Positions 3,721-63,298 of a stretch of 64,000 nucleotides of DNA are shown here, piece after piece. The translations under genes and the position numbers were made by a program. This stretch comes from an uncultured delta proteobacterium (GTDB taxonomy: Bacteria > Desulfobacterota > Binatia > UBA9968). A model generated the notes under the pieces. It saw nothing but the letters and a program-made list of their open reading frames with translations, did no database searches and was not told the origin of the DNA. The first letter of the stretch is position 1, and each line of letters begins with the position of its first letter. The DNA lies in NCBI GenBank assembly GCA_963737905.1, contig CAVTUQ010000009.1, positions 32,001 through 96,000 of the forward strand. Reading direction: 5' to 3'.

Positions 3721-3756
3721 GAATTCGTTGTATTCAGTCGCCTCGCTTGCAGAAGC

Positions 3757-3783: not shown

Positions 3784-3839
3784 CGCGCCTCGCTCAGTCT
3801 TTTTGAGCTGCCTGCGAAACAGAAGGTTTCGGCGACCTG

Positions 3840-9900: not shown

Positions 9901-10063
9901 TTGCGCCGGGATAGAAGGTGACGACCTGGATCGTCGGATAGTCTACCTCCGGCAGCGCCGACACCGGCAGCTGCTTGTAGGCAACCGCTCCAACCAGCAG
10001 CAAACCTGCCATCAATAACGAGGTCGCAATCGGTCTGAGGATAAAGGGTCGAGAGGGATTCAT
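6947..10063 (-). CDS. mdtB: Multidrug efflux RND permease MdtB
   Basis: 1038 aa; [34 protein letters not shown]; ATGA overlap with mdtC. Confidence 0.92.
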
Positions 10064-10081
10064 ATTAGTCTGCGCTTCGCG

Positions 10082-10202
10082 CGTTCAAGTCGTTCAAACC
10101 GTTCCAAACGTTCAAATCGTTTAGAACTTCGTCCCCCGATTCGCGCGGGGGAGGAAAGCGGCGGGGGTTTGAACGTCTTGAACGATTTAAACGTTTTGAA
10201 CC
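10082..10202. repeat. Palindromic 9-mer array: CGTTCAANN x5, central hairpin, inverted NNTTGAACG x4
   Basis: Read directly in the mdtA-mdtB spacer. Confidence 0.85.
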
Positions 10203-10212
10203 TCCTTCATTT

Positions 10213-11389
10213 TTACGAACCCGAGCTTTGCGACCCCTGCAAAGCAACTTTTGCTCCGGGTTGAAGCTTGTCGACTCCGTCGGTCACGACGACCTCTCCC
10301 GCAGTAAGGCCGCGCGCGATTGCCGTCTGGTCCCTCTCGGTTCCTTGGACCTCGACGTTGCGGGCCTCCACCGTATTATCCGGTTTAACAACGTACACGA
10401 ACGCCGACTCCGCGACTGTGTTGGATCGCAGCGTTCGGAACGAGAACTGCGTTGTGGATCGTATCCAGCAGCAGACGCGCATTGACGAACTGATTCGGGA
10501 AGAGGGTAGTGTTCGTGTTCTGAAAGAGCGCCTTGAGCTTGACCGTACCCGTCGTCGGATCGATCTGGTTGTCGATCGTCAGCAGCGATCCCGAGGCAAG
10601 CTTGTGCTTCAGATCGCGGTCGTAAGCTTCCGCCGGCAGCGGGTGCCCTGCTCGCATCTGCTGTTGCACCTGAGGAAGGCTGTCCTCGGAGATCGCGAAG
10701 ATCACGGCGATCGGGTCCATCTGGGTAATGACAAGCAATCCGTTCGTGTCGGAGGCGTGCACGATGTTGCCCGGATCCACAAGACGGAGTCCCACCCGGC
10801 CGGTAATCGGCGCTGTGATGTGGCAATAGGTGAGCTGCAACCTGGCGTTATCGATCTGTCCCTGATCGACTTTGACGGCGCCTTCGTACTGGCGCACGAG
10901 CGATTCCTGAGTGGCTAATTGTTGCTGGGGGATTGAATCCTGACTAAGTAGCACCTGATAGCGCTCGAGGTCGACCTGAGCGTTCTTGAGCAATGCCTGA
11001 TCTTTTGCCATTTGGCCTTCGGCCTGCGTTAACTGCACTTGGAACGGGCGCGAGTCGATTTCGGCGAGCAAATCGCCACTGTGAACAACATCGCCTTCCT
11101 TGAAGGAGACCTTCATCAGCTGGCCGTCAACGCGGCTTTTAACCGTCACGGTGTTGAGTGGCGTCACCGTGCCAAGGCCGGAGAGATAAACAGGCATATC
11201 ACCGGCTTTGGCCTTCGCGGCCACCACTGAAACGGGGCGCGCGCCGAAGTTTTGACGCTGGCGAGCAGCCGGCGAATCCGCGTCACCCGGTTTCACAAAA
11301 TAGACGTAGGTTCCCACTCCTAAAAAAGCTATGCCGATCACTCCGATCCAGTAGCGCTTGTGCCCGATGGTAAAACCGTGTCCTGGCAT
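10213..11389 (-). pseudogene. mdtA: MdtA membrane-fusion protein, frameshifted near 10408-10415 (or sequencing error)
   Basis: ORF 10385-11389 has MFP motifs (VTVKSRVDGQL, ITAPITGRVGLRLVDPGN, FPNQFVN); the expected C-terminus SAFVYVVKPDNTV...VVTDGVDKLQPG continues in another frame to stop 10213. Confidence 0.85.
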
Positions 11390-11531
11390 ATCTTTATTCT
11401 CTCCTAGTGCGTAGCAAACGTTGCGCCCTTCGAGCCGGTGAGCGTAAACGCCCGCAACGAATTCCGTCGATCACCGCTATCTAGGCTTTTCGGTGTAACT
11501 GCTGTTGCTGAAAAACCGTTTCCATCTTCTT

Positions 11532-12230
11532 TCACTCATCGGCCTTTACACCGCCAGGAACTTCTCGTGGCGTTTTCTTGCAGAGGCCCTCGAGCGCTAA
11601 AAGAGAAAATTTCGTAATATGTTCGGTCAGTCTCTCGACTTCTCTGGAGTCATATCGCTGTTCGGGGTACAGCCGAGTGATCACTGGTCGTGCACGCCGA
11701 TAATAGACACATTGACTCACAACGCTGAGGGCGCTCAAGCGAACAACCTCATCGTCTGCCGCTGGACCGAGCAGTTCCCGGACGATGGAAGACAGCTCCT
11801 GGTGGAGTGGACGGGCGCCTTCTTCGACAAGCATATCAAGAGCACGTGTCGGTTCGATCATCTCTCGCATCATGATCTTTGTATGCCAGCCCGGTCGCCC
11901 TTCATCGAAGATGCGAAGCAACAGCGACCGAACATAGACGCGGAATTTCTCTTCGGGGGTGGCCGCTGGGTTTACGCCGAGATTGGGTGGATATTTCTCC
12001 GCAGTCGCTCTGTGCACTGAGCGGAGGACCGCCATATAAAGTCCCTCTTTGTCACCAAAATGGTAATTGACGGCAGCAATATTGGCTCTGGCTTTTTCGC
12101 AGATCTGCCTCACCGTGGCTGCGCGATAACCGTGCTCGGCGAAAATCTCACCGGCGGCCTCTAAGAGACGCTTTTCCGTCCCGGAAACCAAATTTGCAGT
12201 TTTCGTTTCGTTCTCGAACATACGTTTCAA
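11532..12230 (-). CDS. TetR-family regulator, CecR/YbiH-like
   Basis: HTH ATVRQICEKARANIAAVNYHFGDKEGLY; heads the efflux operon; start may be ATG 12221. Confidence 0.88.
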   Translation of the reverse strand: MKRMFENETKTANLVSGTEKRLLEAAGEIFAEHGYRAATVRQICEKARANIAAVNYHFGDKEGLYMAVLRSVHRATAEKYPPNLGVNPAATPEEKFRVYVRSLLLRIFDEGRPGWHTKIMMREMIEPTRALDMLVEEGARPLHQELSSIVRELLGPAADDEVVRLSALSVVSQCVYYRRARPVITRLYPEQRYDSREVERLTEHITKFSLLALEGLCKKTPREVPGGVKADE

Positions 12231-37635: not shown

Positions 37636-38055
37636 TCAGTGTATCTGTTTCCAAACCTTGGCCAGGCTGTCGCCGTAGACGCTCAGATCCCACTCGCAGA
37701 AGTATCCGAAGGGTGTCGTCCGGACTGTATAAGCGTTTTCGCGGAGCCGCTGCGCGACCGACTCGATAAGCGCCTGGGCGAAATCAGGGGAGGCGGTCTC
37801 ACCGCCGAGATGGGCGAAGGAGTGGATGACGATGTTTTTAAATTTTCTTTTGTTGGCAAGCCACTTGATGTGCTTTAGTGATTGCCGCAGAAGGGAAGGC
37901 TTTTCCCCTGTTTCTTCGTCGGACTTTTCGGCGTGGATGAAGATAACCACCGCATCCGCGACTTGCTCTTCCACATCCTGATCCGCCATCTCGGGCAGGG
38001 TCTTGGAGTGGGTCTTCCAACGAAAGCGTTTCGCATGGAAACAAAGAAGCTTCAT
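37636..38055 (-). CDS. Free-standing archaeal-type threonyl-tRNA synthetase editing domain
   Basis: MKLLCFHA, IHSFAHLG and TPFGYF match tRNA-Thr_ED motifs as recalled. Confidence 0.75.
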   Translation of the reverse strand: MKLLCFHAKRFRWKTHSKTLPEMADQDVEEQVADAVVIFIHAEKSDEETGEKPSLLRQSLKHIKWLANKRKFKNIVIHSFAHLGGETASPDFAQALIESVAQRLRENAYTVRTTPFGYFCEWDLSVYGDSLAKVWKQIH

Positions 38056-48775: not shown

Positions 48776-49020
48776 CACGGCTTAGCGGAATCGTTGGCGA
48801 GCCGTGCCTTTCTGGACCTCGTTCCGCTAGAGAAGGGACGACGCGGAGATCAAGAGTTTTATCGCGTCTTCCAATGGTGATTTTGTGATTTGCTTTAACT
48901 ATCCCACCTCGCACGGCCGTTCAGTCAACTGACCATGGATGAGAACGTGTAGCCCGTCAAGGACGGCGGTGGCAACTGGGTGTGGTAAGTCCCCGACTCA
49001 ATCACGCCCAACACCTTGCC
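48776..49020 (+). promoter_or_regulatory. Structured 5' leader, candidate cis-regulatory RNA
   Basis: Interleaved pairings 48776-82/48800-06 and 48783-90/48822-29, further hairpins, and a long stem at 48971-49020 abutting the SD; TTGACA at 48742. Confidence 0.4.
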
Positions 49021-49036
49021 GGAGGGAGGGTTCAAC

Positions 49037-50887
49037 ATGAAATTTCGAATCATCGGCCACGTTTTTGTACTGCTTTGCATCGCGGCCTCTGCCGGAGTCA
49101 CCCTTCTCAAGCTCTCTCCCGCTGCCGATCACAACGATCCCAATGCCGTCAACTCGATCTTCTCGGACATCGATGTCAGCGCTGCCGACCTTTACGATAT
49201 CTTCGGATGGCCAGCGGACGACACGACCGGCGGGGAAAAGGTCGTGATCGCGCTCACTTTCGCCTCGGTTCCCAAGGCCGGCGTCTTTGATTCCGACATG
49301 TTGTACCGCATTCTAGTCAGTCCGACTCCACGGGTTGCGCCGCAGCTCAAAGATGATGACGGTCTGGAAGTGGTGCTAAAGTATTTCGAAGCGATCAAGA
49401 CCAACTATGCGAGCCTCAAGCCGGAGGAAGTCCGGGTCACGGTCGATAAGGATGGCCGGGCGAAAATTAATTTTATCGGCTTTCCCGGTGGCAGCTTTGT
49501 CAAGGTCATCGACACCAATAAAGTTACTACGATCGACACGCCAGACGGCAACTCGCTCCAAGCTTATATCGGTGGCCGCGACGATGCGTTTTTTAACGAT
49601 CTGCCCGGCTTTTTCCGTTCCATCAACTATGCGCCGCAGTTCTATGACGTTCCTCACACAATGACGGATACCCGCGAGCTGAAGATACCCAAAACTCTGA
49701 TCGAATTGGAAGGCAACAAACTATTCAATTTTGACCCCGCCAATCCCAAGCACGGCCAGGGAGTCAAGCTCAAACTGCCGGCAGGCCCGCTCACGTGGAG
49801 CGGCAACAAATATTTCAAGGACAATAACGGCAATTACCGCTTTGTATACAGCGGAAAGGACGCGCAAGCCGGCAGAAACATCAATGCGATCATTCTCGAA
49901 ATGCCTCTGGCTTTTCTTACGAAATCGCCGGACGTGGACCGCATCGTCAACACGTGGGGCGAGAGCTGGGTCCTCAAGGCCGCTCATAAAATCGAAACGA
50001 TCCCCGATGACCGCGCCCCGGTCAAGGGACCCTTCCTGCTTCAGTATCCGTGGCTTGTCGGGGGCATCGCGATCTTGCTTGGCGCGCTGCTGATCCTTCT
50101 TGGGTTCAGAGCCTTGTCGCAACGCTCCGCCAACTCCTGGGCCAGGCCCGCCAGCCGCTTTATTCTGGGCATTGTGCTCGTGGTCTTGGGCGCGGGCTAC
50201 GGCATCATCGTCGGTAAGTTTGCCGCCCAGAAGCCCGAACTCGCGCGGCCCGAGTACCAACTCGACGACGAGTTGAAAAGATACAAGCTTGTCGATACCG
50301 ACGGCCAGGCTTTCGCCGATGCCGGTTTGAGCGAGCGGGAGGATGACCGGCAATTGGGGGCGTTCAATTTCTGGCTCGCGCCCCACTTCATCACCCGGCT
50401 CGCCCATTTGGGGTGGGGCTTCGGACCGTCGATCACCGCGTTGGGACTACGTACTTCCTTCGATCATGACAACTCTCCGATTTCCGTATACAAGACATAC
50501 GCTTCGCCGATAGAGGCTTTTCCGCGGGTCAAGAAAGTCGTGCTCCAGCAACTGAACATGCCGGACGACACGTGGAACAAAAAGAAGCTAAACATTCCGC
50601 TGCGGCGTGGCGTGGAGATCTTCATACCCAACGTCAACGCCATCGACATGGATACGACCGGCACGTGGCCGTTCGGGCGGCGCCCGGAGGATCAGGTCGC
50701 CACCCGGTTTCTCTCGTTGTTTCTCGATATGAAAGCGGAGATCAACGGCAAGCGCTACAACGTCGAAACGCTGGGGGATCAGTCTTTGTGGGATCACGCG
50801 CCAGTCGAGCCGAAGACGCCGCCCAATCCACTGAAAAACGACAAGGAATTTCTCAAGCAGTTTCCTTATCTGGCGGAGCCGTGGTGA
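49037..50887 (+). CDS. DUF4331-like exported protein with internal TM hairpin
   Basis: Signal peptide, ADHNDP, GGRDDAFFND, NINAIILEMP, PFGRRPEDQV, FPYLAEPW. Confidence 0.7.
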   Translation: MKFRIIGHVFVLLCIAASAGVTLLKLSPAADHNDPNAVNSIFSDIDVSAADLYDIFGWPADDTTGGEKVVIALTFASVPKAGVFDSDMLYRILVSPTPRVAPQLKDDDGLEVVLKYFEAIKTNYASLKPEEVRVTVDKDGRAKINFIGFPGGSFVKVIDTNKVTTIDTPDGNSLQAYIGGRDDAFFNDLPGFFRSINYAPQFYDVPHTMTDTRELKIPKTLIELEGNKLFNFDPANPKHGQGVKLKLPAGPLTWSGNKYFKDNNGNYRFVYSGKDAQAGRNINAIILEMPLAFLTKSPDVDRIVNTWGESWVLKAAHKIETIPDDRAPVKGPFLLQYPWLVGGIAILLGALLILLGFRALSQRSANSWARPASRFILGIVLVVLGAGYGIIVGKFAAQKPELARPEYQLDDELKRYKLVDTDGQAFADAGLSEREDDRQLGAFNFWLAPHFITRLAHLGWGFGPSITALGLRTSFDHDNSPISVYKTYASPIEAFPRVKKVVLQQLNMPDDTWNKKKLNIPLRRGVEIFIPNVNAIDMDTTGTWPFGRRPEDQVATRFLSLFLDMKAEINGKRYNVETLGDQSLWDHAPVEPKTPPNPLKNDKEFLKQFPYLAEPW

Positions 50888-50923
50888 GGCTTTCGGGGCG
50901 GAGAAAACCCTGCGTACAGGACG

Positions 50924-52192
50924 GTGATGCCAATGCGATTGTTCAAGCCGATGCTAATCCTAGTGGCGGCGGTCTGTTTGTCGTTTCCCTTGACCAGTCT
51001 GAGCCACCGCAAACCAAGCCCACTGACGGACTATGAGCTCGAGCTGGCGCAAATCGAAAAGGACATCGCTGAGATCGAAGGCGACGTATTTACCCCTCCG
51101 GTCGATATCGACAAGGGCCTCAAATTTCTGCACCGCATGTATCACCGCGTCCAGCTCACCGGCGGTGTGGCCGATGTGCAAGCGATGGAGCCCGCTATCG
51201 ATCGCGCGCTCCGGGAGCTCGGACCCTTGACGGGTCTCTACCTTCTCAAGGCCAATCTCGATTTCAAGCTTCATCGGCTGAAGCAAGCCGACCAGGACAT
51301 CGCGGCGCTTTCCCGGTTCGCGGGCGATGCGCGAATCGTGGCCCTAAAAGCCGGCATCGACTTTCAACGGGGCCGATACGAAGCCTCAAAAATGGGTTAC
51401 CTGAGCGCGGTCGAAAAAAACTCCACCTGGGATAATCTTGCTCGGCTCGCCTATGGGTTAGGGAAGTTCGGTGATGTCGATCTCGCCGACCGCCTGTACC
51501 GTCAGGCGGAAGAGGACATCTCGGTCAAGGAGATGCGCGCGTACGCCTGGGTGGAGTTGCAAAGGGGACTGTTGGATTTGAACCGGGGCCGCTATGACGA
51601 AGCGATGGGCCATTACCGGCAGGCCGGGAAGGCGTATTCCGGTTACTGGCTGGTCGATGAGCACATGGCGGAGCTTTTGGGCGCGACCAAAAAGTTCGAC
51701 GCGGCGGCGGCGCTTTACGAGTCGGTGGTCGCGCGTGCGCCGCTGCCGGAGCTTCAGCAGCGGCTCGGCGATCTCTACGTGTTCATGGGCAAGCCCGAAC
51801 AGGCAAGACCGTGGCACGACAAGGCGTTGGCGGGCTATCTCGATTCTGCGGCGCGCGGCGAGGTCAACTACTATCATCATCTCGCCGGATTTTATGCCGA
51901 CGTGCGCGGGGATGGCGCCGAGGCGGTTAAATGGGCAGAGAAAGACCTCGCGCTGCGCCCCCACTTCGCCACCCAGGACGCGCTGGCTTGGGCGTTGTAT
52001 CGCGCCGGCCGCTTCGAAGAAGCGCGTAACGTAAGCCGTGAAGCGCTTTCGTCCGGCGTAAAGGACGCGCACCTTTTCTTCCACGCCGCGATGATCCATC
52101 TGGCGGCCGGAAAAACCGACGAGGGCAAACAGCTTCTAAAGAAAGCCGGGGAGATCAACCCCGGCTACGAGAATTTTCATGCGCATCGCTGA
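50924..52192 (+). CDS. Exported TPR-repeat protein
   Basis: Signal peptide; helical repeats, DALAWALYRAG, FFHAAMI. Confidence 0.8.
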   Translation: MMPMRLFKPMLILVAAVCLSFPLTSLSHRKPSPLTDYELELAQIEKDIAEIEGDVFTPPVDIDKGLKFLHRMYHRVQLTGGVADVQAMEPAIDRALRELGPLTGLYLLKANLDFKLHRLKQADQDIAALSRFAGDARIVALKAGIDFQRGRYEASKMGYLSAVEKNSTWDNLARLAYGLGKFGDVDLADRLYRQAEEDISVKEMRAYAWVELQRGLLDLNRGRYDEAMGHYRQAGKAYSGYWLVDEHMAELLGATKKFDAAAALYESVVARAPLPELQQRLGDLYVFMGKPEQARPWHDKALAGYLDSAARGEVNYYHHLAGFYADVRGDGAEAVKWAEKDLALRPHFATQDALAWALYRAGRFEEARNVSREALSSGVKDAHLFFHAAMIHLAAGKTDEGKQLLKKAGEINPGYENFHAHR

Positions 52193-53300
52193 ACGATTGA
52201 AGCTGTTTTTAATTTGCCTCTTCGTCTGGGCGGCCGTAGCGCCGCGCATCGCGACGGCGCATCCAGTGGCGCAAGGCGCGCTGGAGATCGTCGTACTTCC
52301 GGAACGAGTTAGCATGACCGCCCGGGTATCTATGGAAGAAGTGATCGTCGCCGAAGCTTACGTCGGGCGGAAAAACGCTTCGGCCCTGGAGATGGTGCAC
52401 GCGCACGGCGCGTATCTGCTCGCGCATTTCCGCGTCGCGGCGGATGGGCGGTTGCTCGACGGGCGCGTGGTCAAAGTTCCCGAACAAGCCAACGGCCGCC
52501 CGAGCTACCAGCTCGAATACCGGCTCGCGGGCGGCGCGCCCGGGCAAGTTGCGTTGGAACAGGACGTGCTGCGCGAGTTCGAGTTCGCGCCGGGCAATCC
52601 ATGGGAGGCGAGTTACGTGGTGCGTGTCCGGCGGGATGGCGGACCTGCGGTTGAGGGCTTGTTGTTGAGTTCCAAGCAGCCACTCATTCTCGATTTGAAC
52701 CGGATAACGTCCGGCATCGATAAAGCGCGGATGGTGAAGGAATACATTCATCATGGGATCATGCACATCCTGTCGGGTTATGATCATCTCCTCTTCATCG
52801 CCGCGCTGGCGCTGGCTGTCGCGACCTTGTGGGACCTGGTCAAAGTCATCAGCGCCTTTACGCTTGCCCACTCGATCACGCTCACGCTCTCAGTGCTGAA
52901 CGTCGTCAGGCTGCCGGAAAATATCGTCGAACCGATGATCGCGGCGAGCATCGTGTTCGTCGCCCTTCAGAACGTGATCGTGCCCGAGCGCAGCCGCGGC
53001 GCCGGCAGACTTTGTGTCGCTTTCTTTTTCGGTCTTTTCCACGGCCTCGGCTTCGCGGGTGGTCTACTCAGCGCGATGGAAGGAATGGCCGGTTTGGCGG
53101 TGGGTCTGGCCATCGCTGCGTTCAGCGCAGGGGTCGAGATCGGTCATCAAGTGGTCGTTCTCCCGATTTTTTGCGCTCTAAAAATGATGCGCGAGCGGAT
53201 GTCTCAGCAGTCGGCTTCAATTCCCGAACGTGTGCTGCGGTACGGTTCCGCCGGGATTTGTGCGGCCGGTATGTTCTACTTGGTTGCAGCGTTGCATTGA
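52179..53300 (+). CDS. HupE/UreJ-family membrane protein with N-terminal exported domain
   Basis: GIMHILSGYDHLLF, SAFTLAHSITL, FGLFHGLGFA, GVEIGH. Confidence 0.88.
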   Translation: MRIAERLKLFLICLFVWAAVAPRIATAHPVAQGALEIVVLPERVSMTARVSMEEVIVAEAYVGRKNASALEMVHAHGAYLLAHFRVAADGRLLDGRVVKVPEQANGRPSYQLEYRLAGGAPGQVALEQDVLREFEFAPGNPWEASYVVRVRRDGGPAVEGLLLSSKQPLILDLNRITSGIDKARMVKEYIHHGIMHILSGYDHLLFIAALALAVATLWDLVKVISAFTLAHSITLTLSVLNVVRLPENIVEPMIAASIVFVALQNVIVPERSRGAGRLCVAFFFGLFHGLGFAGGLLSAMEGMAGLAVGLAIAAFSAGVEIGHQVVVLPIFCALKMMRERMSQQSASIPERVLRYGSAGICAAGMFYLVAALH

Positions 53301-53360
53301 GATTACCGGCAAAGTTACCCAGCAACGGCTGCCGAACGGACGGAGCGGTAAGGAGGAAGA

Positions 53361-56087
53361 ATGAGCAGGAAAGATTGTTGTGTCGGAATATTGATGCTGC
53401 TCTGCGCGATCATCCTCGCGAGTTGCGGAGATCGGCCGAAGCCGGGCACCGTAGTGGACGAGGCCAAGAAGGCAGGGCTGACGGCCAAGGACCTGCCGGG
53501 ATCGGACGACGACTACCTGCGTGCCATGGATCGCGGCCTGGATGAAGAGGCGGTGCACAAAGCTCTGCCCTTCCTGTCCAAGGAAGAGGCCTGGAAGTCT
53601 TATAACCGAGGCCGCAACAACTGGGTCGTCTGGACGGCAGGCAACGACACGCTCTGGGATTACTTGGCCAACAACGCCTTCGGCGCCTTCGATCTATTGA
53701 AGATTGTCTCCTCCCATCCGGGGATCAGGTATTGCGGCAACAAAACCCCCGTGTACGGCTACGGCGGCAAGGGCGATTACGCCAAAGACCAGCAGTCCGA
53801 ATACGGCAAGGAGAAATCTTCTCCGGCACCGTATCCGCCGGGTTACTACGCTTACGACGAAGATGACGAGTGCAAGGGCGACGACCGCCAATTCTACGAA
53901 GTCTCCCGCGAGAACCGGTGGAAATATCTCGGCCTGGTCAACGAACCGGGCCTCCAACAGTGGGACCCCAAGGGCTGCGACTGGAAGAACGACAAGAAGA
54001 CCGATGACGAACCGTACGGCAAGTGCGGCGACCCCAATCGTTTCGGCCTCTGGCTGGACAAGCGCGTCGGCGCTCCCGACCCGTTCGAGGATGAGAAGAA
54101 ATATCCGGGCGTGAAAGTCGGAGCGCGTGGGAAGACCGTTCCGGCCGGCTCCTACTACGGCTATGCGAGCGGCGTCGTCGGACTACGACTCTTTCCCAAT
54201 CCCGCTTTCGACGAAGCGGCCAAAAAGAAATGGGATCCGATCAGGTACTACACCGACCCGGATTACTACAGCGACAAAAACCTGGTGCGCCCGTATCGGG
54301 TCGGGATGTCCTGCGGCTTTTGCCACGTCGGTCCAAGCCCCACCGAACCTCCCAAAGATCCCGAGAATCCGGAATGGAAGAACCTCAACTCCAACCCCGG
54401 CGCGCAGTACTTCTGGCTGGACAGAATCTTTTTCTGGAATCCGTATAAGCGGCACGAGAACTTCATCTACCAACTCTTCCACACTTCGCTTCCGGGGTCG
54501 CTCGACACCTCCCTCGTTTCTAGCGATAACATCAATAACCCGCGCACGATGAACGCCGTCTACAGCATCGCGGCACGTCTAAAGATGGCCGAGTTTCACC
54601 CGGAAAAATTGACCGGTGGCGAGCGCAACAACAGGCAGTTCAACGACTTCGACAGAACCAAAGTTCTCTCAAAATACTTCATACCACCGGACACCGTCCT
54701 CGCGCCTCACGTTCTAAAAGACGGCGCCGATTCGGTCGGCGTACTCGGAGCTTTGAACCGCGTGTACATCAACATCGGCCTTTTTAGCGAGGAATGGCTG
54801 CTCCATTTCAAGCCGCTGATCGGGAACCTCCCCGGAAAGAGGATCACGCCCATCGAGATCGCCGTACTGGAGAAGAATTCCACTTACTGGAACGCCAACG
54901 TGACGCAGACTCCCGATCTGGCGCTGTTTTTCCTCGCGAGCGCCCGGCCCGATTACTTGAAAGAAGCGGCTGGCGGCAAGGACTATCTCACCACGGATCA
55001 AAAAAAGCTCAATCACGGCAAGATCGTCTTTGCCGAGAACTGCGCGCGTTGCCACTCGGGGAAACAGCCACCGCCACCGCCCGAAATCGACTATGCAAAG
55101 TGCGGCGGTCCCGGTTACCTAGATTGCTGGAACCGCTACTGGAGCTGGACCAAGACGGAAGCGTTCAAGAAGCAGATGCGCGAGATCGTCATGCGCGACG
55201 ATTTTCTGGAAGACAATTTCCTCTCCACCGAGCTTCGCGTTCCCGTCACCTTGCTCCAGACTAACGCGTGCAGCCCGCTTGCGACCAACGGTCTCAGAGG
55301 AGACATATGGGACAACTTCACCTCCACGACCTACAAGGAGCTGACTGCCGTCGGCAAATTCACCGTCCACAAACCCAAGACGGGCGAGGCCTGGGAGTAC
55401 GACATGCCCGGCAAAGGGCGCGGGTACACCCGCCCCGCGTCGTTGATCAGCCTGTGGTCGACGGCGCCGTACTTGCTCAATAACGCTGTTGGACCTTTCT
55501 ACGGAGAACCCAGCGTCGAGGCGCGCATGGCGTCTTTCAACGAATCGATCCAGCAGATGCTCTGGCCGGAAAAGCGCCAGAAGGACTCGCTTCTGGGAGA
55601 CAAAGTCCCCGGCTACATGCAGCGCACGACGACGAGAAGTTACCTGAGAGTTGCGTGGGGATACTTGCCGGGGCAATTCGCGGCGTTTATGGACTGGCTT
55701 AGCGGCTGGCTCCCCTGGCTCTTTGGCCAAACCGGGCTTGAGATCGGCCCGATCCCCAAGGGAACGCCGGTCGGCCTCCTGGCCAACTTGCCATTGGTGT
55801 CTGAGAGCGAGCGTCCGGAAGACCGAGTGGCGTATGCCGAAAAGGTGATTGATTTGCTGAAAAAGGCCGGCAAGGATTTGAAGTCTCTGCCAGCCAATGC
55901 GACCGACGAGCAGGCGCGCGAGATCTTCGCCGGCGTCGGAGATCAGTTGCTAAAGCTCAGTAAGTGCCCCGACTTCGTTGTCAACCGCGGCCATTATTTC
56001 GGCACCAGTTATTTCAAGGATAAAGACGAGCCGGGACTCAGCGACGATGACAAGTGGGCGCTGATCGAGTTTTTGAAAACATTCTAG
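53361..56087 (+). CDS. Large di-haem cytochrome c lipoprotein (CCP/MauG/RoxA-like)
   Basis: LASC lipobox; CGFCH and CARCH; LWSTAPYLLNN; C-terminal LIEFLKTF. Confidence 0.8.
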   Translation: MSRKDCCVGILMLLCAIILASCGDRPKPGTVVDEAKKAGLTAKDLPGSDDDYLRAMDRGLDEEAVHKALPFLSKEEAWKSYNRGRNNWVVWTAGNDTLWDYLANNAFGAFDLLKIVSSHPGIRYCGNKTPVYGYGGKGDYAKDQQSEYGKEKSSPAPYPPGYYAYDEDDECKGDDRQFYEVSRENRWKYLGLVNEPGLQQWDPKGCDWKNDKKTDDEPYGKCGDPNRFGLWLDKRVGAPDPFEDEKKYPGVKVGARGKTVPAGSYYGYASGVVGLRLFPNPAFDEAAKKKWDPIRYYTDPDYYSDKNLVRPYRVGMSCGFCHVGPSPTEPPKDPENPEWKNLNSNPGAQYFWLDRIFFWNPYKRHENFIYQLFHTSLPGSLDTSLVSSDNINNPRTMNAVYSIAARLKMAEFHPEKLTGGERNNRQFNDFDRTKVLSKYFIPPDTVLAPHVLKDGADSVGVLGALNRVYINIGLFSEEWLLHFKPLIGNLPGKRITPIEIAVLEKNSTYWNANVTQTPDLALFFLASARPDYLKEAAGGKDYLTTDQKKLNHGKIVFAENCARCHSGKQPPPPPEIDYAKCGGPGYLDCWNRYWSWTKTEAFKKQMREIVMRDDFLEDNFLSTELRVPVTLLQTNACSPLATNGLRGDIWDNFTSTTYKELTAVGKFTVHKPKTGEAWEYDMPGKGRGYTRPASLISLWSTAPYLLNNAVGPFYGEPSVEARMASFNESIQQMLWPEKRQKDSLLGDKVPGYMQRTTTRSYLRVAWGYLPGQFAAFMDWLSGWLPWLFGQTGLEIGPIPKGTPVGLLANLPLVSESERPEDRVAYAEKVIDLLKKAGKDLKSLPANATDEQAREIFAGVGDQLLKLSKCPDFVVNRGHYFGTSYFKDKDEPGLSDDDKWALIEFLKTF

Positions 56088-56123
56088 CTCGATGTGCAAC
56101 TACGACGTGAAAGGAAATCACGG

Positions 56124-57308
56124 ATGAAAAAGACAGCCCTATTCTTTCTCGGTCTCGTGCTACTTCTCTTTCCGGCAGCCATCAAGAGTTCGGATCACGC
56201 CGATCCGATCAATCTTGAAGTGTTGGAATCCGGCATCACCGACCTCTTCGCCTTTCCGGACGGTGACCAGATGATCGTCATCCTCAATACCCGGCGGGCT
56301 CTGACCGCGCCGCCGCCGTACCAACTCGAGCCTTTCGAGTTCGCGATCTTCATGGACCTTCACACCCAAGTCACTGTCGACAACGCCGAGGAGCGCGCGC
56401 GCTACGGCGGTTCGATCGCCAACCCCGAAGGCATCAAACCCGACGTCACGATAAAAATCCGCCTCAAGAACGACGTCACGTTGAACAGCATCCAGTACCA
56501 AGGTCTGGAAAACACCAATGGCATCAAGCTGTTCACCGGCGTGCGCGACGACCCATTCATTTTCCCGCGCTTTTTCAAGCGCAACACGATTGCAATGGTG
56601 CTGAGCATCCCGTTCTCCGCGTTCCCCCAGGACCAGCGGGACTGGATACTGTGGGCGACCTCGACGCGGCTAAAGGACGGCGTGCAGATCGACCACGTCG
56701 GCCGGTCTAATCGTTCGCAGCAGGGCCGGTTTGATTTCTTAAACACGCTGCCGCCGAGCCAGCACGTGGCGGCGATCAAGGCGTATAACCAAACCAGGGT
56801 GCGAATCGAGAAGTCCCTGATGGAATACTTGCCGCCGCTCGTGAACGGGTTTCAACCGTTATTTAAAATTCGCTCCTACGACTATTTCCCCGACGTGATG
56901 ATCTACACCAAGCAATATCCGATTGGATTTCCTAACGGACGGACGTTGACCGACGACGTCGCGCTGTTGACTTGCGAGCAGGGGGACTGCCCGCTGGTCG
57001 AGAGCGCCTATGTTGACAGCCCGCAGTGGCCGCGCGCGACGGTCAATGACAAGCCGTTCCTGAAAGAGTTTCCCTATCTCGCAGAGAAGTGGGAAGAAAG
57101 TGAAATAGCGCCGAAGCCGGCAGAGCCTGTCGGTGTTTTCAGCGCGCTGGCGGCGGCCTGGGACACCGGGAAATTCTTTACCGAAGCGACCGCGAACTGC
57201 TGCACGCCGGTCAAGAGAACTGCGATTGCGGCGATCATTCTGGTGCTCCTGATAATACCGATATTGGTCTGGCTGATTACTCGATGGCGTCGCCGGGTGA
57301 AAACCTGA
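56124..57308 (+). CDS. DUF4331-like exported protein with C-terminal TM anchor
   Basis: SSDHADP, ITDLFAF, GVRDDPF, GFPNGRTLTDDV, FPYLAEKW. Confidence 0.75.
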   Translation: MKKTALFFLGLVLLLFPAAIKSSDHADPINLEVLESGITDLFAFPDGDQMIVILNTRRALTAPPPYQLEPFEFAIFMDLHTQVTVDNAEERARYGGSIANPEGIKPDVTIKIRLKNDVTLNSIQYQGLENTNGIKLFTGVRDDPFIFPRFFKRNTIAMVLSIPFSAFPQDQRDWILWATSTRLKDGVQIDHVGRSNRSQQGRFDFLNTLPPSQHVAAIKAYNQTRVRIEKSLMEYLPPLVNGFQPLFKIRSYDYFPDVMIYTKQYPIGFPNGRTLTDDVALLTCEQGDCPLVESAYVDSPQWPRATVNDKPFLKEFPYLAEKWEESEIAPKPAEPVGVFSALAAAWDTGKFFTEATANCCTPVKRTAIAAIILVLLIIPILVWLITRWRRRVKT

Positions 57309-57338: not shown

Positions 57339-58412
57339 ATGGATGCGGAGTTTTTCGGGATTGAAGGAATCACCGATGAAGATCGCGCCTATCAAGGCTC
57401 GCGGTTCTCGGAGGTGCAGGGCGTGCTCTTTGCCAATCCTTACCAGAAAGTTTGGGGCCGCGCCGGCGAGCCCCCGTTGCCCGTCTACGAAGTGACGCTC
57501 GGCAGCGTTTTGCGCGGCGTCCTGCCGTTCGGCGAGCCGTATCTGTTTCGGAAGGCCACCGAGCGTGCCGTCGATTCGCACGCCGATTTGCGTTGGGGCC
57601 CCGACCGCAAGGGTTATCGCCGCCTGCTTCATCCGAACGGTATATGTCTTACGGGCTTTTGGGAGATCACCGAAGAGAATCCATATTCGGGTTACTTCCA
57701 AAAAGGCAGCCGGGCGCTGGCGATCGGACGCTATTCCACCTGCTGCACGGAAACGCGGCGCGGCCATGCGCGCTCGCTGTCGTTGGTGGGGAAGCTCTAT
57801 CCCACCACTGACCCGAAGCACTTAGAGCCGTTTCACACCGCCAACTTCATCACCCAGCAGGATATCGGCGGTGACTATAGCGACTATATCAACGACGCGG
57901 AAGTGCGCAACGCTCCCGACACCCGCCTCTGGCGCCGGGGGGGCGCCGTGCCGGTTCTGCTGGTGACGGGCGCGGTGTTTCAGCGCGTCGATAAGCAACC
58001 TTCGCAGCGCCAGCTGTATCAGATCGCCGAGCTTGGCAAGCCGAAGGACGCGCCCACGCGCGCGCCGGAGTTCATGCGCCTGTTGGTCGCGCCGGAGCAG
58101 CCCAGGATCGAAGGCGCAGCGTTAGATTTTCGCGACGAGATCATGGCGCAGATTTTCGATAAGGGCGATCCGAAGCCAAAGCGCACGCTCACCTTCAACA
58201 TCGAAGTGACCGACGAGGGATCGACGCGCGGATTGCCGTTCTTCCAGCGACGCTCGTTCAAGAATTGGCGCCGCATCGGAAGAATGGTCTTCGATAACGC
58301 CGTCGCCTCTTACAACGGTGATTTCGTCATCCACTTTAGCCATCCCACCTGGCGCAACGATCGCAACGACCCCTCGACCACCGCCCGCGTCGGCGGGCGT
58401 AAAGTGCGCTGA
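57339..58412 (+). CDS. Catalase-related haem protein (short, catalase-like fold)
   Basis: RRLLHPNGICLTG, IGRYS, SLSLVGKLY and ANFITQ resemble the catalase distal-His/beta-barrel motifs. Confidence 0.55.
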   Translation: MDAEFFGIEGITDEDRAYQGSRFSEVQGVLFANPYQKVWGRAGEPPLPVYEVTLGSVLRGVLPFGEPYLFRKATERAVDSHADLRWGPDRKGYRRLLHPNGICLTGFWEITEENPYSGYFQKGSRALAIGRYSTCCTETRRGHARSLSLVGKLYPTTDPKHLEPFHTANFITQQDIGGDYSDYINDAEVRNAPDTRLWRRGGAVPVLLVTGAVFQRVDKQPSQRQLYQIAELGKPKDAPTRAPEFMRLLVAPEQPRIEGAALDFRDEIMAQIFDKGDPKPKRTLTFNIEVTDEGSTRGLPFFQRRSFKNWRRIGRMVFDNAVASYNGDFVIHFSHPTWRNDRNDPSTTARVGGRKVR

Positions 58413-58460: not shown

Positions 58461-60344
58461 ATGAACTCAGGAACTAACGGACAGAGTGATTTTGAATACA
58501 TCGTGGTCGGCTCGGGCGCCGGCGGCGGAACCGTCGCGGCGCGATTGGCAGAGGCCGGGCACAAAGTGCTCGTACTGGAAGCGGGCGGCGACCCGTACAA
58601 ACTGAAGGGCGGTGTGCGGTGGGACCCGAAAAGAATCAGCTTGCCGGACGATTATGACGTTCCGTGTTTCCACGGTATCTCCACCGAGAGTGACGCGATC
58701 CGCTGGGACTTCTGGGTGCGTCACTACAGCAACGATCAGCAGCAGCAGAAAGACCCCAAGCATCGCGACATCAACGGAGAGCCCAGGATACTCTATCCAC
58801 GAGCCGGGGGCTTGGGAGGCTGCACGACGCACAACGCCATGATTACGGTCTACCCCCACAACAAGGATTGGGAAGATCTCGCCGATCTGACGGGCGATCC
58901 TTCGTGGAAGGCGGAGAACATGCGCAAGTATTATCAGCGCATGGAGAACTGTCATTATCGAAGGTTTCCGTGGCGGTGGATATACAAACTCTTTGGCTGG
59001 AATCCCATACGTCATGGCTACGACGGCTGGCTCTCCACAGAAGTCGCGGTTCCGGTTGAGGCGCTGAAGAAAGATAAACGACTCGTGGAGGTGATTGTAA
59101 AATCGGCCAAAGCCGCGGCAAAGAGTGTTGAGATGCCCGTCAAGCGTGTCTGGTGGTCCTTGCTCGGCCGGCTCGACCCGAACGACTGGCGCTTGGTGAA
59201 CGATAACGCGGTCGGAATTCGGCTGCCGCCTTTGGCCACGTATCGGCGCCGTCGCAACGGCACACGGGAATTTTTGCTGGATGTCCAAAAGAGATATCCG
59301 GGCAATCTGACCATAGAGCTTAACGCTCTTGCAACCAAAGTGTTGTTCGATGGGAAGAATCGAGCGGTCGGCGTCGAGTATCTCAAGGGCGAGAGGCTGT
59401 ACCGGGCCCACTGCGATCCCAGTGATCAGCCGAGCGAAGAAAAGTCGGTCCGGGCAACGCGCGAAGTGATCCTCGCAGGCGGCGCCTTCAACACGCCGCA
59501 GCTTTTGATGCTTTCCGGAATTGGGCCGAAGGACGAGCTGAAGAAACACGGCATCGATGTTCGCGTCGGTCTTCCCGGCGTGGGACGAAATCTCCAGGAC
59601 CGCTACGAGGTCGGCGTCGTCAACCGGATGAAAACAGACTGGACTGTCCTTAAAGACGCCATGTTCGATACGAGTGACCCACAGTTCCAAGATTGGAAGG
59701 GAAGCCAACGCGGCGTCTACATCACCAACGGGGCGGTCATCGCTGTCATCAAAAAGTCGGACAAGTCGCGCCCGCTACCCGATCTCTTCTGCTTCGCGCT
59801 GGTGGGTAAGTTTCGCGGCTACGAGCCGAACTATTCGCAGGAGATCGTCCTTCACCACAACTATCTCACCTGGGCGGTTTTGAAGGCGCATACGAACAAC
59901 ACCGGAGGCACAGTCGCTTTGAAATCCGCCGACCCACGCGAAACGCCCGAAATTAATTTCCACTACTTCGAAGAAGGGACGGGCAAATGGGAAGAAGACG
60001 TCGAGTCGGTGGTCGGTGGCATCAAGTTTGTCCGCGCGATCAACTCACACGTCCAGGATGTTTTCGAGGAAGAAGAGGCGCCGGACCAGGAGGAGCGAAA
60101 GGATCTGGCTCAATTCGTAAAGGATAACGCCTGGGGCCATCACGCCTCCTGTACTTGCAAGATCGGGCGCCAAGACGATCCGATGGCGGTCCTCGACGGC
60201 AATTTTCGAGTGTATGGGACCGAGGGCCTGCGCGTGGTCGATGCCTCCGTGTTTCCAAGGATCCCGGGATTTTTCATCGTTACTTCGGTTTACATGATCG
60301 CGGAAAAGGCGGCCGACGTGATTCTCGCCGATGCGAGAAGATAA
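58461..60344 (+). CDS. GMC oxidoreductase (FAD-dependent)
   Basis: VVGSGAGGG, LGGCTTHNAM, TPQLLMLSGIG, HHASCTCKIG, LRVVDASVFP. Confidence 0.93.
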   Translation: MNSGTNGQSDFEYIVVGSGAGGGTVAARLAEAGHKVLVLEAGGDPYKLKGGVRWDPKRISLPDDYDVPCFHGISTESDAIRWDFWVRHYSNDQQQQKDPKHRDINGEPRILYPRAGGLGGCTTHNAMITVYPHNKDWEDLADLTGDPSWKAENMRKYYQRMENCHYRRFPWRWIYKLFGWNPIRHGYDGWLSTEVAVPVEALKKDKRLVEVIVKSAKAAAKSVEMPVKRVWWSLLGRLDPNDWRLVNDNAVGIRLPPLATYRRRRNGTREFLLDVQKRYPGNLTIELNALATKVLFDGKNRAVGVEYLKGERLYRAHCDPSDQPSEEKSVRATREVILAGGAFNTPQLLMLSGIGPKDELKKHGIDVRVGLPGVGRNLQDRYEVGVVNRMKTDWTVLKDAMFDTSDPQFQDWKGSQRGVYITNGAVIAVIKKSDKSRPLPDLFCFALVGKFRGYEPNYSQEIVLHHNYLTWAVLKAHTNNTGGTVALKSADPRETPEINFHYFEEGTGKWEEDVESVVGGIKFVRAINSHVQDVFEEEEAPDQEERKDLAQFVKDNAWGHHASCTCKIGRQDDPMAVLDGNFRVYGTEGLRVVDASVFPRIPGFFIVTSVYMIAEKAADVILADARR

Positions 60345-60410
60345 GGAGATTCGGCGATTCCTGGTGCGTACAAAAATTTTTTACGCTGGTCGGCCTGCCT
60401 AAATGCGGAA

Positions 60411-63298
60411 TTGTTTTACCTGCCGGTGCTGAGCAGGCCGGTCCCTTGTCTCATAGTGGCCGCGATGCTCTCCTTTGGAGGATGCGCCGGCAAGCCGGGG
60501 GATTTGATCGCTTGCGGCAAAGTCGCATGGAGTGGGTTTCGCAAGGTTGCCGACGACCGAGCCGAGCGGTTCCTGGGCAAGGTCAAAGAGGAGACCGCCC
60601 GCTGCCGCGGCGGTGAGAAAGCCGTTGAGTCACGGGGCCTGCCATGGGTCGACTGGCAGAATTACTGGGCAACGGGCGACATCGCTAGCAAAGGACCGGA
60701 GCCGCTCTGGAAGCTCGGGCACCTGAGCCCCAACGGCCGTGGCATCGACGGTGCGCTGCTCGATCTCGAATATCAGCGCATGGAGTTGATCAAATTCAAC
60801 CTCTTCGACAACAGCGGGACCTACAAAGATTACGTGCGCGGCCGCGACGGCTTCGAGGTGCTGCGCTGAAGATTTGGGACGAGATGCGGTTGCCCAAAGA
60901 CCATCCGCATTATGCAGCCGTCGGCGGCGATGGCCAGCAGCTCTGCCGGGGCGAGTTGATTCGCTTCCGCAACCTGACCGGAATTTGCAACGATATCAGA
61001 AATCCGCTCATGGGCTCGGCCGATCAGCCGTTCGCGCGCAACGTTCAATTCGAGGTCACCTTCCCGGATTTGGGCCAAAACTTGTATGCGCGAAACCGGC
61101 ACGGCGATCGCCTGGGGCTGTTGAAGCCAGACCCGCAGGTGATCAGCCGCAAGCTCTTCACGCGCGCCCAATCGCATCCTGAAAAATGCCGCGCGGGGCA
61201 CGGGCTTCCAGGTGATTCGGCCCAGGCGGAATGCGATTACAAGAAAGCGCCGTTCTTCAACGTGCTGGCGGCCTTCTGGATCCAGTTCATGACGCACGAT
61301 TGGTTCTCGCACTTGGAGGAAGGGCACAACTCGCCTGAGATGATGACGGTGGGCTGTGCGTCGCAGCGGATCGGGGATATCGAGCAGCCGTTGAATCCGC
61401 AGCAAGTTGCAAAATTGGGCTGCCGTCCCGGAGATCGGATGGACAAGAGCTATGTGAGTGAGGTCGGCGAACCTTCAAAGTTCACTCATCAGGGAAGGGA
61501 GTATCTGAATCGTGCGTACAAGACCACCCGCAATACCGTTACGGCATGGTGGGACGCCTCGCAAATTTACGGATGGGATGAGGCCTCGCGGCAGCGCGTC
61601 AAGCGCGATCCCAGCGATCCGGCGAAATTGCTAATGCTATCGACACGCTCCGGCGAAGCGCAAGGCTACCTTCCGGTGTTCGGCGCTTCCGATCCAATCA
61701 ATCCCCAGTGGGCCGGACAGGAAGCGACGGCCTTCCCGGACAACTGGACGATCGGCCTGAGTTTTTTTCACAATGTCTTCGCCCGCGAGCACAACCAGTT
61801 TGTCGATGAGTTCAGAAAACGCGTTGCGGATAAGCCGGATGAAGACTCGGGCCTGCGCAATCCGGCGCGGCCGGATGAGAAGATTCCCTATAAGAATGTG
61901 ACGGCGGACGAACTTTTTGAAATCGCTCGGCTCGTCGTCGCCGCAGAGATCGCCAAGATTCACACCCTCGAATGGACGCCGCAGTTGCTTTATGATGAGC
62001 CGCTCCACCTGGCGATGAACGCCAATTGGCACGGACTGTTTCGCGGTAAGGACTTGGTCCAGGCAGCGCTAGAGAAAATCATCGCCAACAGCTTCAGCCA
62101 ATCAAAAGACCCAAAGAAAGCCGGCAAGTGGTACTCGGTCTTCGCATCGGGCCCCGGAATCTTCGGCCTCGGCAGTCGCGTGTATACGGACGACGCGATC
62201 TTTGCGAAATACGACCCAAAAAAAACCGATATCTGGAGCCTGAAAAACCCCGATCACGTCAATGGCGGGACCAATCACTTCGGCTCGCCATTCAACTTTC
62301 CGGAAGAGTTCATCACGGTGTACCGGCTGCATGCGATGGTTCCCGATCTGATCGAATATCGCGAGTCGGGGAAATATCCGAACGTGATCCTTAACAAGAT
62401 CCCGGTGGTAGACACCTTTCGCGGCCGCGCCACCACGGCGATGCGGAAGCGCGGGCTGGCGAACTGGGCGCTCTCTATGGGGCGCCAGCGACTGGGGGTG
62501 CTCACGCTGCAGAACCATCCACAGTTCCTGCAGAACCTGGAACTGCCCCGGCTGCACAGCGCGACGGGGAAGATCGATGTGGCGGCGCTCGACATTATCC
62601 GCGACCGCGAGCGGGGCGTGCCGCGCTTTAATGAATTTCGCCGCCAGTACGGTCTCAGGCAACTGACGAGCTTCGACGATTTCGTCGACCGGCGGCTGCC
62701 CAAGGACTCCCCCGAGCTGGCGGAACAGGAACGATTGATGGGTATCCTGCGGGAGGTGTACGGTCAGCACAAATGTGACGCTTCGAAAATTATCACTACG
62801 GCGCAGGTGAACGACGACGAGAAGCATACGCCGATCAACGACTGCCTGGGACACGCCGACGGAAGCCTGGTGGACAACATCGAAGATGTCGATACGGTCG
62901 TCGGTTGGCTCGCGGAGTTTCCCAGGCCGCACGGTTTCGCGATTTCCGAAACTCAATTTCAGGTTTTTATCCTCAATGCGTCACGCCGGCTCTTTAGCGA
63001 CCGGTTTTTTACTTCGAGCTTTCGCCCGGAGTTTTACAGCCACCTCGGTGTGAAGTGGATCAATGAAAACGGCCCTGACGGTGTAATCAAGGAGAAGAAC
63101 AAGTCGAACGGTCGTGAGGTCGAGATCTCGCCATTGAAACGAGTCTTGCTGCGAACCATTCCGGAGTTGGCGCCGGAGCTCGCACCTGTCGTGAACGCGT
63201 TCGACCCGTGGGCCCGCGATCGTGGCGAGTACTATTCGTTAAACTGGAGGCCCCGCCCTGGAGCTGAGTCAGATCAGGTGTTCAGAGTTTTGCAATGA
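60411..63298 (+). CDS. Haem peroxidase-cyclooxygenase family lipoprotein, alpha-dioxygenase-like; frameshift near 60857
   Basis: ORFs 60411-60869 and 60884-63298 join if one G is added (FEGAALKIWDEMRLP); WIQFMTHDW, EEFITVYRLH, RDRERGVPRFNEFRR, GFAISET..ASRRLFSDRFFT. Confidence 0.85.

Follow-up and report, generated by a model that had tools for sequence, protein, structure and literature searches.

Positions 60411-63298 of the DNA analysed here raise two questions: do they encode an exported bacterial relative of the plant fatty-acid alpha-dioxygenases (alpha-DOX), and can the gene, as assembled, give rise to that protein? The stretch, called the window below, comprises 64,000 nucleotides (nt) of contig CAVTUQ010000009.1 in assembly GCA_963737905.1, a metagenome bin that is 87% complete with 6.7% contamination; all coordinates are window positions. 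Alpha-dioxygenases are plant enzymes of defence and development and are used as biocatalysts for fragrance aldehydes. An initial annotation had read the locus (the DOX gene below) as one gene for an exported alpha-dioxygenase that makes 2-hydroperoxy fatty acids or aldehydes shortened by one carbon, C(n-1). By sequence and modelled fold, the protein is assigned to the fatty-acid alpha-dioxygenase (PIOX-like) branch of the animal haem peroxidases, and its gene is broken by a deletion of one nucleotide. The open reading frames (ORFs) and motifs that bear on both questions, given with lengths in amino acids (aa) where needed, are the following:

60411-60869 (+): 5' piece, frame A; 152 codons from a TTG start (alternative start GTG at 60426) to a premature TGA at 60867-60869; predicted signal peptide, lipobox and first part of the expanded alpha-DOX base domain
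60468-60485 (+): lipobox LSFGGC, with the candidate lipid-modified Cys codon at 60483-60485
60759-60809 (+): helix LDLEYQRMELIKFNLFD, with probable channel-entrance counterparts Leu (60765-60767) and Arg (60777-60779)
60852-60856 (+): frameshift site TTCGA, 5 nt where relatives have 6 nt (two codons); passage from frame A to frame B
60884-63298 (+): 3' piece, frame B; 804 codons from the first ATG, in a frame open from 60689; An_peroxidase / alpha-DOX catalytic domain, five large insertions and a C-terminal extension
61277-61303 (+): WIQFMTHDW, with the putative distal haem His (H138 of the 804-aa ORF, rice H157)
61541-61573 (+): TAWWDASQIYG
61949-61978 (+): IAKIHTLEWT (H360, W364 and T365, corresponding to rice H311, W315 and T316)
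62303-62332 (+): EEFITVYRLH (F476, Y480 and H483, corresponding to rice F375, Y379 and H382)
62600-62644 (+): RDRERGVPRFNEFRR, the RDRERG..FNEFRR motif
62933-63013 (+): GFAISET...FQVFILNASRRL...DRFFT (F692, F695, I696, A699 and R701/R702, corresponding to rice F549, F552, I553, A556 and R558/R559)

All of the motifs that the initial annotation had quoted, and its lipobox, are thus located in the window.

Family and active site

The 804-aa product matches the Pfam family An_peroxidase (PF03098) with an E value of 4.2e-70. No Pfam match was obtained for the 152-aa piece; the N-terminal base domain of alpha-DOX lies outside the coverage of the Pfam model. An intact homologue, P0003, is 88% identical to the window protein and was used as its stand-in for structure modelling; no NCBIfam model matched it. 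When solved structures in the PDB were searched with phmmer, the best match was rice alpha-DOX (4kvj/4kvk; E 3e-58, 200 bits), together with 4kvl, the Y379F rice entry (1.1e-57), and Arabidopsis alpha-DOX (4hhr/4hhs; 2e-50). The next solved match after these is a lactoperoxidase-like protein at only 8e-7, and no cyclooxygenase (COX) was found at E 1e-3 or better in this search.

The fold points the same way. An AlphaFold2 (AF2) model of P0003, made from an alignment of 45 sequences, has a predicted template modelling (TM) score of 0.81 and a mean predicted local distance difference test score (pLDDT) of 71.3. Foldseek with this model placed the four alpha-DOX entries as the top 4 of 327 matches (E about 1e-29, target TM score 0.73-0.76), while all other haem peroxidases and COX-2 were at 1e-13 or weaker and COX at 1e-12. 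Using VIA-align, the model superposes on rice alpha-DOX with Z 25.9 and a root-mean-square deviation of 2.9 A, with 569 of 611 residues aligned at 32% identity; the corresponding values are Z 22.4 with 489 residues aligned at 14% identity for myeloperoxidase, and Z 19-20.6 at 18-21% identity for COX. The comparison with the rice and Arabidopsis structures that the initial annotation had proposed therefore returns them as best matches in both Foldseek and VIA-align. Clustering with classical peroxidases, which it had named as the outcome that would speak against it, is not seen for the solved peroxidases and COX, and the protein is farther from the COX type than from alpha-DOX by sequence, Foldseek and VIA-align. 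The assignment to the alpha-DOX family holds up: no solved structure is nearer than alpha-DOX in sequence or in fold, and the catalytic and carboxylate-binding residues are conserved.

VIA-align also pairs the P0003 model from residue 55 onward with the rice chain from residue 22 onward, and the "extra" N-terminus is therefore largely an enlarged alpha-DOX base domain. Of the features by which the initial annotation had set this protein apart, the additional N-terminal region and the large insertions are both real, the former for the most part as this enlargement and not as a separate, added module.

The active site can be compared residue by residue with rice alpha-DOX as described in the available part of PMC8720084. 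There, Y379 is the catalytic Tyr, on which F375 and F552 stack; H157 is the distal and H382 the proximal haem ligand; H311 and R559 bind the fatty-acid carboxylate and T316 positions C-alpha; and L53, R57, W315, M325, A331, F549, I553 and A556 line the channel. The PDB chain index runs 3 ahead of this numbering and was anchored by the Phe of 4kvl at the Tyr column. In the 804-aa ORF, H138, H360, W364, T365, A380 (rice A331), F476, Y480, H483, F692, F695, I696, A699 and R701/R702 are identical to rice, and the sole listed non-identity is L374 for M325. Each aligned active-site residue is invariant or at least 90% conserved across 45 relatives, in an alignment that takes in the more distant 829-960-aa forms. 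The distal His (H307 of P0003), the proximal His, the Tyr, the stacking Phe, the carboxylate-binding His/Arg, the Thr and its neighbour W364 are invariant.

The remaining two channel residues probably lie in the 5' piece. P0254, a representative of the cyanobacterial type, aligns end to end with rice alpha-DOX, and its L17 and R21 align with L130 and R134 of P0003, which makes these, by transitive alignment, the candidate counterparts of rice L53 and R57. The R134 column holds Arg in 21 of the 21 sequences with a residue there (22 rows, 1 gapped). In the window, the corresponding codons are probably Leu 60765-60767 and Arg 60777-60779, as mapped through P0254. If this mapping is right, the 804-aa ORF by itself would be missing not only the export signal but also some of the substrate channel.

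Interruption of the reading frame

As assembled, 60411-63298 comprises two ORFs in different frames and no single open frame. The lipobox piece and the haem domain are out of frame, and the earlier reading of one gene spanning the whole interval does not apply to the assembled sequence. The cause can be located by comparison with relatives. Between the residues GRDG and GAA(L/V)K, full-length homologues have two codons (6 nt), and the window has 5 nt. Five homologues that were inspected (P0003, P0005, P0041, P0115 and P0121) begin with a lipoprotein-type signal and then run uninterrupted through the region of the window's frame change. For counts of frames and neighbours, 80 loci were kept from at least 599 matches in a genome collection. 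By tblastn, the N-terminal piece lies directly upstream of the catalytic piece, in the same frame and with no intervening stop, at all 80 of these related loci. In related genomes, matching frames are 942-964 aa long or cut by contig ends, and only the window's own genome has its two matches in different frames among those examined.

Closely related populations provide a further comparison. Logan contigs from four public runs, belonging to four studies, were aligned to 60300-61400. In all three runs that cover the site (X1, X5 and X8, from three studies), one more C follows 60856 and brings the two pieces back into one frame; the fourth run, X13, is without coverage there. A deletion of 1 nt at 60852-60856 splits a single gene into the two pieces, 60411-60869 and 60884-63298; intact, the protein would be about 955 aa long. 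With this deletion in the assembly, the exported full-length enzyme cannot be made from the sequence as it stands. Either the base is absent from the assembly only, or the strain carries a dead copy of a gene that is intact in closely related populations. A single missing base is enough to break the gene call here, and automatic annotation would list either a pseudogene or two genes.

That the deletion is real and the window strain holds a true pseudogene is given slightly less than even credence. The break stands in the assembled sequence outside any homopolymer run. Of the 49 ORFs scanned in the rest of the window, 27 matched Pfam, and none of these 27 shows another evident split, which gives no indication of an assembly generally riddled with indels. 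The long contig pieces of X1, X5 and X8 each have 4 to 6 other differences from the window, and four substitutions within 1.1 kb separate the window from all three covering runs; these shared substitutions make the window a separate lineage, which could hold a mutation of its own. Patchy presence, with the gene in 8 of 18 other genomes of the same family, is also what would be expected of a dispensable gene. Against inactivation, neither piece contains a further stop, and both still show 88% identity to an intact homologue, which would place any loss of function in the very recent past. The frame is intact in all three near-identical populations, and single-base consensus errors do occur in metagenome bins. 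Programmed -1 ribosomal frameshifting, for which the needed shift has the right sign and the frames overlap over 60689-60869, is effectively refuted and is not a serious option because no slippery X XXY YYZ heptamer is present at 60840-60869, while the frame is continuous in 80 of 80 relatives and the near-identical contigs hold one more base.

Export, distribution and proposed function

In the 5' piece, LSFGGC comes after a hydrophobic N-terminal stretch. The lipobox assignment is a pattern match, by which a lipobox-like motif is found within the first 70 residues of 107 of 117 full-length homologues. The lipobox Cys column (C36 of P0003) is kept in 96% of the 45 aligned relatives. Phe at position -3 is seen in few of these motifs (FGGC in 3 of the 107), and the ten homologues without a lipobox include some that read as N-terminally truncated and some with variants such as LDGC or LEGC. 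The protein is predicted to be a Sec-type exported lipoprotein, located outside the cytoplasm with lipid on its N-terminal Cys. The earlier claim of export draws support from this N-terminal lipoprotein signal, which is kept across the family. Ten Cys columns besides the lipobox Cys are conserved in at least 87% of rows and fall into neighbouring pairs (P0003 positions 46/76, 190/204, 271/286, 327/349 and 800/823). The five pairs suggest disulfides, a pattern typical of disulfide-bonded extracytoplasmic proteins. The insertions amount to 15 segments of P0003, 318 aa in total, that at least 75% of 12 short-form relatives lack; segments 329-336, 601-631, 796-831 and 900-919 are absent from the intermediate 829-930-aa forms too.

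Relatives of this kind are numerous. When 5.8 billion clustered proteins were searched, 7999 candidates were scored and 2909 matched at E <=0.001; the best 120 are 72-88% identical and mostly 940-990 aa long. Among 1.84 billion cluster representatives there are 2247 relatives at E <=0.001 and 476 at <=1e-30. Trees of PIOX-like representatives were built with FastTree (71 rows) and, as a quick tree of a hand-picked subset, with IQ-TREE (51 rows). Ten of 76 representatives of at least 540 aa were excluded as fragments or chimeras by their motif table, and all shorter ones were dropped; plant alpha-DOX, at about 200 bits, falls just below the best-150 cut-off of 211 and is absent from both trees. 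The window protein lies in a clade of proteins of about 955-971 aa (support 100), which is nested in a long-form clade of 829-971 aa (support 100 and 99) with a long stem branch. The cyanobacterial-type P0254 lies in a clade (99% by the Shimodaira-Hasegawa-like approximate likelihood ratio test) separate from the long-form clade (99%). The outgroup was the genome's own classical peroxidase on a branch of length 10, and the root of the IQ-TREE tree is unreliable. This second An_peroxidase of the genome (571 aa; contig C38, L003:1345-3060, minus strand) has the distal motif FIDHD and the proximal motif FRFGHS; it is of the classical type, falls outside the alpha-DOX branch and forms a very long branch as outgroup.

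In the genome collection, 573 of the at least 599 pattern matches encode a relative, and the subfamily is present in at least 573 species-level genomes from many phyla. The 80 loci include Methylomirabilales/NC10, Rokubacteria, Binatia, Nitrospirota (Manganitrophus among them), Desulfobacterota and Gemmatimonadota, as well as Acidobacteriota, Beta- and Gammaproteobacteria and others, at 59-80% identity to the window protein. Within the window's order, the distribution is patchy. The DOX gene occurs in 9 of 31 genomes, the window's own included: in 8 of 18 other genomes of the same family and in none of 12 from two other families. The DOX copies of two genomes of the same genus (G001 and G002) are 61-76% identical to P0003, and the window's copy is 88% identical to it. 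This contrast, seen beside the 59-80% identity across phyla, fits unusually strong constraint combined with either horizontal transfer or old paralogy.

On the favoured reading, the protein is an alpha-dioxygenase that is lipid-anchored outside the cytoplasm and acts on free fatty acids by the plant mechanism; this is considered probable, with appreciable room for doubt, because the active site is complete and invariant and because of the fold. Haem binding, substrate, product and location are what we infer from the comparisons above. The intact enzyme would be a b-haem protein anchored through its N-terminal Cys after Sec-type export. On the model of the cyanobacterial and plant alpha-DOXs, a peroxide would oxidise the haem seated between the distal and proximal His, and the oxidised haem would turn the conserved Tyr into a radical. 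From C-2 of a free fatty acid, bound at its carboxylate by the conserved His and Arg, this radical would take a hydrogen. Addition of O2 would give the 2-hydroperoxy acid, which would decay to the C(n-1) aldehyde and CO2 or be reduced to the 2-hydroxy acid, and the site of the reaction would be the cell envelope and not the cytoplasm. The product chemistry (2-hydroperoxy acids, C(n-1) aldehydes) is deduced from the conserved residues only. From the initial proposal of an exported alpha-dioxygenase with these products, the family, the residues and the export signal are retained, and an intact gene, as assembled, is not.

Several observations weigh against this reading. The window's own copy is interrupted and does not form an intact coding sequence. 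The P0003 model is moderately confident, with pLDDT below 50 at residues 629-646, which include the stacking Phe before the Tyr motif. The match to plant alpha-DOX reaches only 200 bits in five separate stretches, and three short-form bacterial representatives match plant alpha-DOX with 360, 327 and 292 bits in one stretch each; by this sequence measure, the window protein is the most divergent kind of homologue compared with the plant enzymes. The approximately 318 inserted residues could reshape the substrate channel. No aldehyde- or hydroperoxide-handling partner is conserved beside the DOX gene, the commonest neighbour cluster being found at 17 of the 80 loci. Some named hosts (Syntrophus gentianae, Smithellaceae, Desulfobulbaceae) belong to groups of strict anaerobes, which is odd for an O2-dependent enzyme. 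Finally, a full-text search, outside which most subscription journals and supplements fall, found no published assay for the long-form clade or for any non-cyanobacterial bacterial alpha-DOX homologue.

Some of the same observations could point to an enzyme with the same fold and radical mechanism that acts on another substrate or with another regiochemistry. It might use hydroxy-fatty acids, or lipid A-derived or N-acyl compounds of the envelope, or attack away from C-2. The long stem branch and the separate, well-supported clade fit such a change, as do the roughly 318 inserted residues with four segments confined to the clade of about 955 aa, the envelope location implied by the lipobox and the low similarity to the plant enzymes. 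The active site argues otherwise: the residues that hold the carboxylate next to the Tyr (rice H311 and R559) and the one that positions C-alpha (T316) match rice and do not vary within the clade, and the same applies to six further channel residues. A change of substrate or of position is accordingly thought unlikely, although it is the strongest of the alternatives in function.

A protein that is mainly a haem peroxidase, acting on periplasmic H2O2, organic hydroperoxides or small substrates and not as a dioxygenase, is held to be quite improbable. Its sequence and fold are much nearer to alpha-DOX than to any solved peroxidase, and its invariant Tyr and carboxylate-binding His/Arg would be unneeded by a plain peroxidase. 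What speaks for it is that Pfam assigns the protein only to the general An_peroxidase family, that source databases name its relatives "peroxidase family protein", and that the folds of myeloperoxidase and lactoperoxidase still superpose at Z 21-22. Some loci also have peroxide-related haem proteins as neighbours (di-haem cytochrome c peroxidase-like and catalase-fold proteins).

Gene neighbourhood and known systems

The genes upstream of the DOX gene share its strand and are separated by 6-66 nt:

53361-56087 (+): di-haem cytochrome c, 908 aa; lipoprotein-like, with lipobox ILASC and two CxxCH haem-c motifs
56094-57308 (+): DUF4331 protein, between the cytochrome c and the 357-aa gene
57339-58412 (+): 357-aa protein of a large family without a Pfam model
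58461-60344 (+): GMC-family flavin adenine dinucleotide (FAD) oxidoreductase, 627 aa; Pfam GMC_oxred_N/C, signal peptide not seen; separated from the DOX gene by 66 nt

The 908-aa protein has a weak likeness to di-haem cytochrome c peroxidases (NF040606, E 1.3e-9, below the cut-off of that model). Across the 80 loci, the GMC gene is found at 8, the cytochrome c at 6, the 357-aa protein at 1 and the DUF4331 protein at none. A conserved operon as a general feature was therefore rejected, with the window's neighbours at 0-8 of the 80 loci and no cluster at more than 17, several of the listed neighbour clusters looking like antisense-frame artefacts. Scans gave 5 promoter-like sites (2.8 +/- 1.7 in shuffled sequence) and 15 terminator-like sites (13.4 +/- 3.7), close to the shuffled counts and uninformative on operon structure.

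The trio of cytochrome c, GMC and DOX genes is a recurrent but minority arrangement, present at 6 of the 80 loci. It occurs at L005 (Methylomirabilales), the closest named locus, and at several betaproteobacterial loci. Among relatives of the window's genome, the cytochrome c is on the DOX contig in G005, G014, G015 and G016, and in the last of these the DOX gene directly follows the GMC gene. The cytochrome c occurs in 10 of 31 related genomes, one of these (G012) a weak match. Two other minority neighbours, in other phyla, are a Tle1-like phospholipase domain protein (6 of 80 loci) and a FAD_binding_4/ALO oxidase (8 of 80), exemplified by L070:4688-5737 and L070:8606-9967.

The 357-aa protein belongs to a family with 3237 matches, nearly all exactly 357 aa long and 73-89% identical. 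A Pfam search of 26 members gave no match of the family even at E <=10, apart from one unrelated match at 0.25, and a profile search of PDB sequences gave none at E <=1. Its AF2 model is poor (pLDDT 51.7), and the six best of 48,161 chains compared with it all have the catalase fold (Z 7.2-9.3). These include chanoclavine synthase (Z 9.3), the 33-kDa catalase-related protein of M. avium (7.8), two catalases and coral allene oxide synthase (7.2). In the ESM Atlas, 8 of the 30 nearest clusters are in "catalase family" sets. The family has invariant R95-x-x-H98 and S324-Y325-x-x-D328 motifs, which we take to resemble the distal and proximal motifs of catalases. The protein is probably a small catalase-fold haem protein, a lead from modelling and not a finding. 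As a conserved partner of the DOX gene it was rejected, being found at 1 of 80 loci and in 1 of 31 related genomes, the window's own. A different, 408-aa neighbour at 14 of the 80 loci is catalase-like in the ESM Atlas (28 of the 30 nearest clusters), and BLASTP found no similarity between the 357-aa protein and the 408-aa neighbour at locus L050. The gene adjoining the 408-aa gene encodes a 433-aa protein without known family (13 of 80 loci); both genes are exemplified at L050:4844-7378.

A wider proposal takes some of these neighbours as partners. In it, the long-form clade would serve bacteria of soil and sediment, among them lineages held to be anaerobic, as an envelope system for fatty-acid alpha-oxidation or oxylipin formation. 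Its partners in certain lineages would be the di-haem cytochrome c peroxidase-like lipoprotein, the GMC flavoprotein and small catalase-fold haem proteins. We regard this proposal, partners included, as speculative and doubtful. If true, surface free fatty acids would be converted to aldehydes or 2-hydroxy acids for signalling, for the detoxification of membrane-active fatty acids or for the consumption of O2 and peroxide, in a bacterial periplasmic lipid-oxidation pathway without a described counterpart.

Other loci of the window were noted in passing. At 49016-57308 (+), DUF4331 proteins (49016-50887 and 56094-57308) flank a tetratricopeptide repeat protein, a HupE/UreJ_2 membrane protein and the cytochrome c. 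The interval is possibly a distinct envelope cluster, related to metals or redox, with the oxygenase genes embedded in it. A free-standing 139-aa protein at 37639-38055 (-) matches the whole "archaea-specific" editing domain of threonyl-tRNA synthetase (PF08915, E 4e-39), and its host appears bacterial. At 2275-12230 (-) lies a complete RND efflux locus, in which two full-length AcrB-type pumps in tandem (3843-6950 and 6950-10063) are accompanied by an outer-membrane factor, a membrane-fusion protein and a regulator of the TetR/CecR type.

Among known systems, the classical peroxidases myeloperoxidase, lactoperoxidase and DdPoxA share the An_peroxidase haem fold but have 14-20% identity and fewer aligned residues. 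COX, the cyanobacterial 10S-DOX and the fungal linoleate diol synthases belong to the same superfamily and share the logic of a Tyr-radical haem dioxygenase. Unlike in COX, a carboxylate-binding His/Arg beside the Tyr is a feature of alpha-DOX, according to the available part of PMC8720084. A 2026 review of the branch of COX and linoleate diol synthases discusses, in its available part, only the cyanobacterial 10S-DOX among bacterial enzymes (PMC13049297).

Bacterial membership of the alpha-DOX family is already known. CsDOX, CalDOX and LepDOX are cyanobacterial and are described as the first prokaryotic alpha-DOXs in the accessible text of their report (PMC9305512), and a 2026 preprint names, in the portion available, no prokaryotic alpha-DOX beyond those three (10.64898/2026.07.30.741946). 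In the literature found, as far as its accessible text goes, the characterised prokaryotic alpha-DOXs are these three, of the short cytoplasmic type. Judging by genus names, they presumably lie in the P0254 clade: the closest relatives of P0254 are from Nostoc, Calothrix brevissima, Rivularia, Leptolyngbyaceae, Cyanothece and Moorena, plus Nitrosomonas aestuarii. The cyanobacterial enzymes share the PIOX-like family and the same catalytic residues with the window protein, and the Calothrix brevissima homologue matches P0003 at E 3e-82, with 30% identity over 759 columns of which 231 are gaps. At about 580 aa, however, the cyanobacterial type is much nearer to plant alpha-DOX (360 bits in one stretch for P0254) than the window protein is. 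For a periplasmic or lipoprotein alpha-DOX, no paper was found in the same full-text search, with most subscription journals and supplements outside it. The long lipoprotein form, as a distinct and very widespread clade, adds a new form to this known family. If active, it would make alpha-oxidation a common envelope function in soil, sediment, nitrifying or methane-cycling bacteria and would provide a new pool of secreted, disulfide-stabilised alpha-DOX scaffolds.

The plant alpha-DOX enzymes, rice OsaDOX (4KVJ/4KVK/4KVL) and Arabidopsis alpha-DOX1 (4HHR/4HHS), resemble the window protein in the YRxH motif of the catalytic Tyr, in the active site and in the base domain. They differ from it in length and in their relation to the membrane: the plant enzymes are about 620-640 aa long and bind membranes monotopically, whereas the window protein would be about 955 aa long with a cleavable lipoprotein signal. 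The clade of the window protein also adds some 318 inserted residues and five Cys pairs, at 24-32% identity to the plant enzymes.

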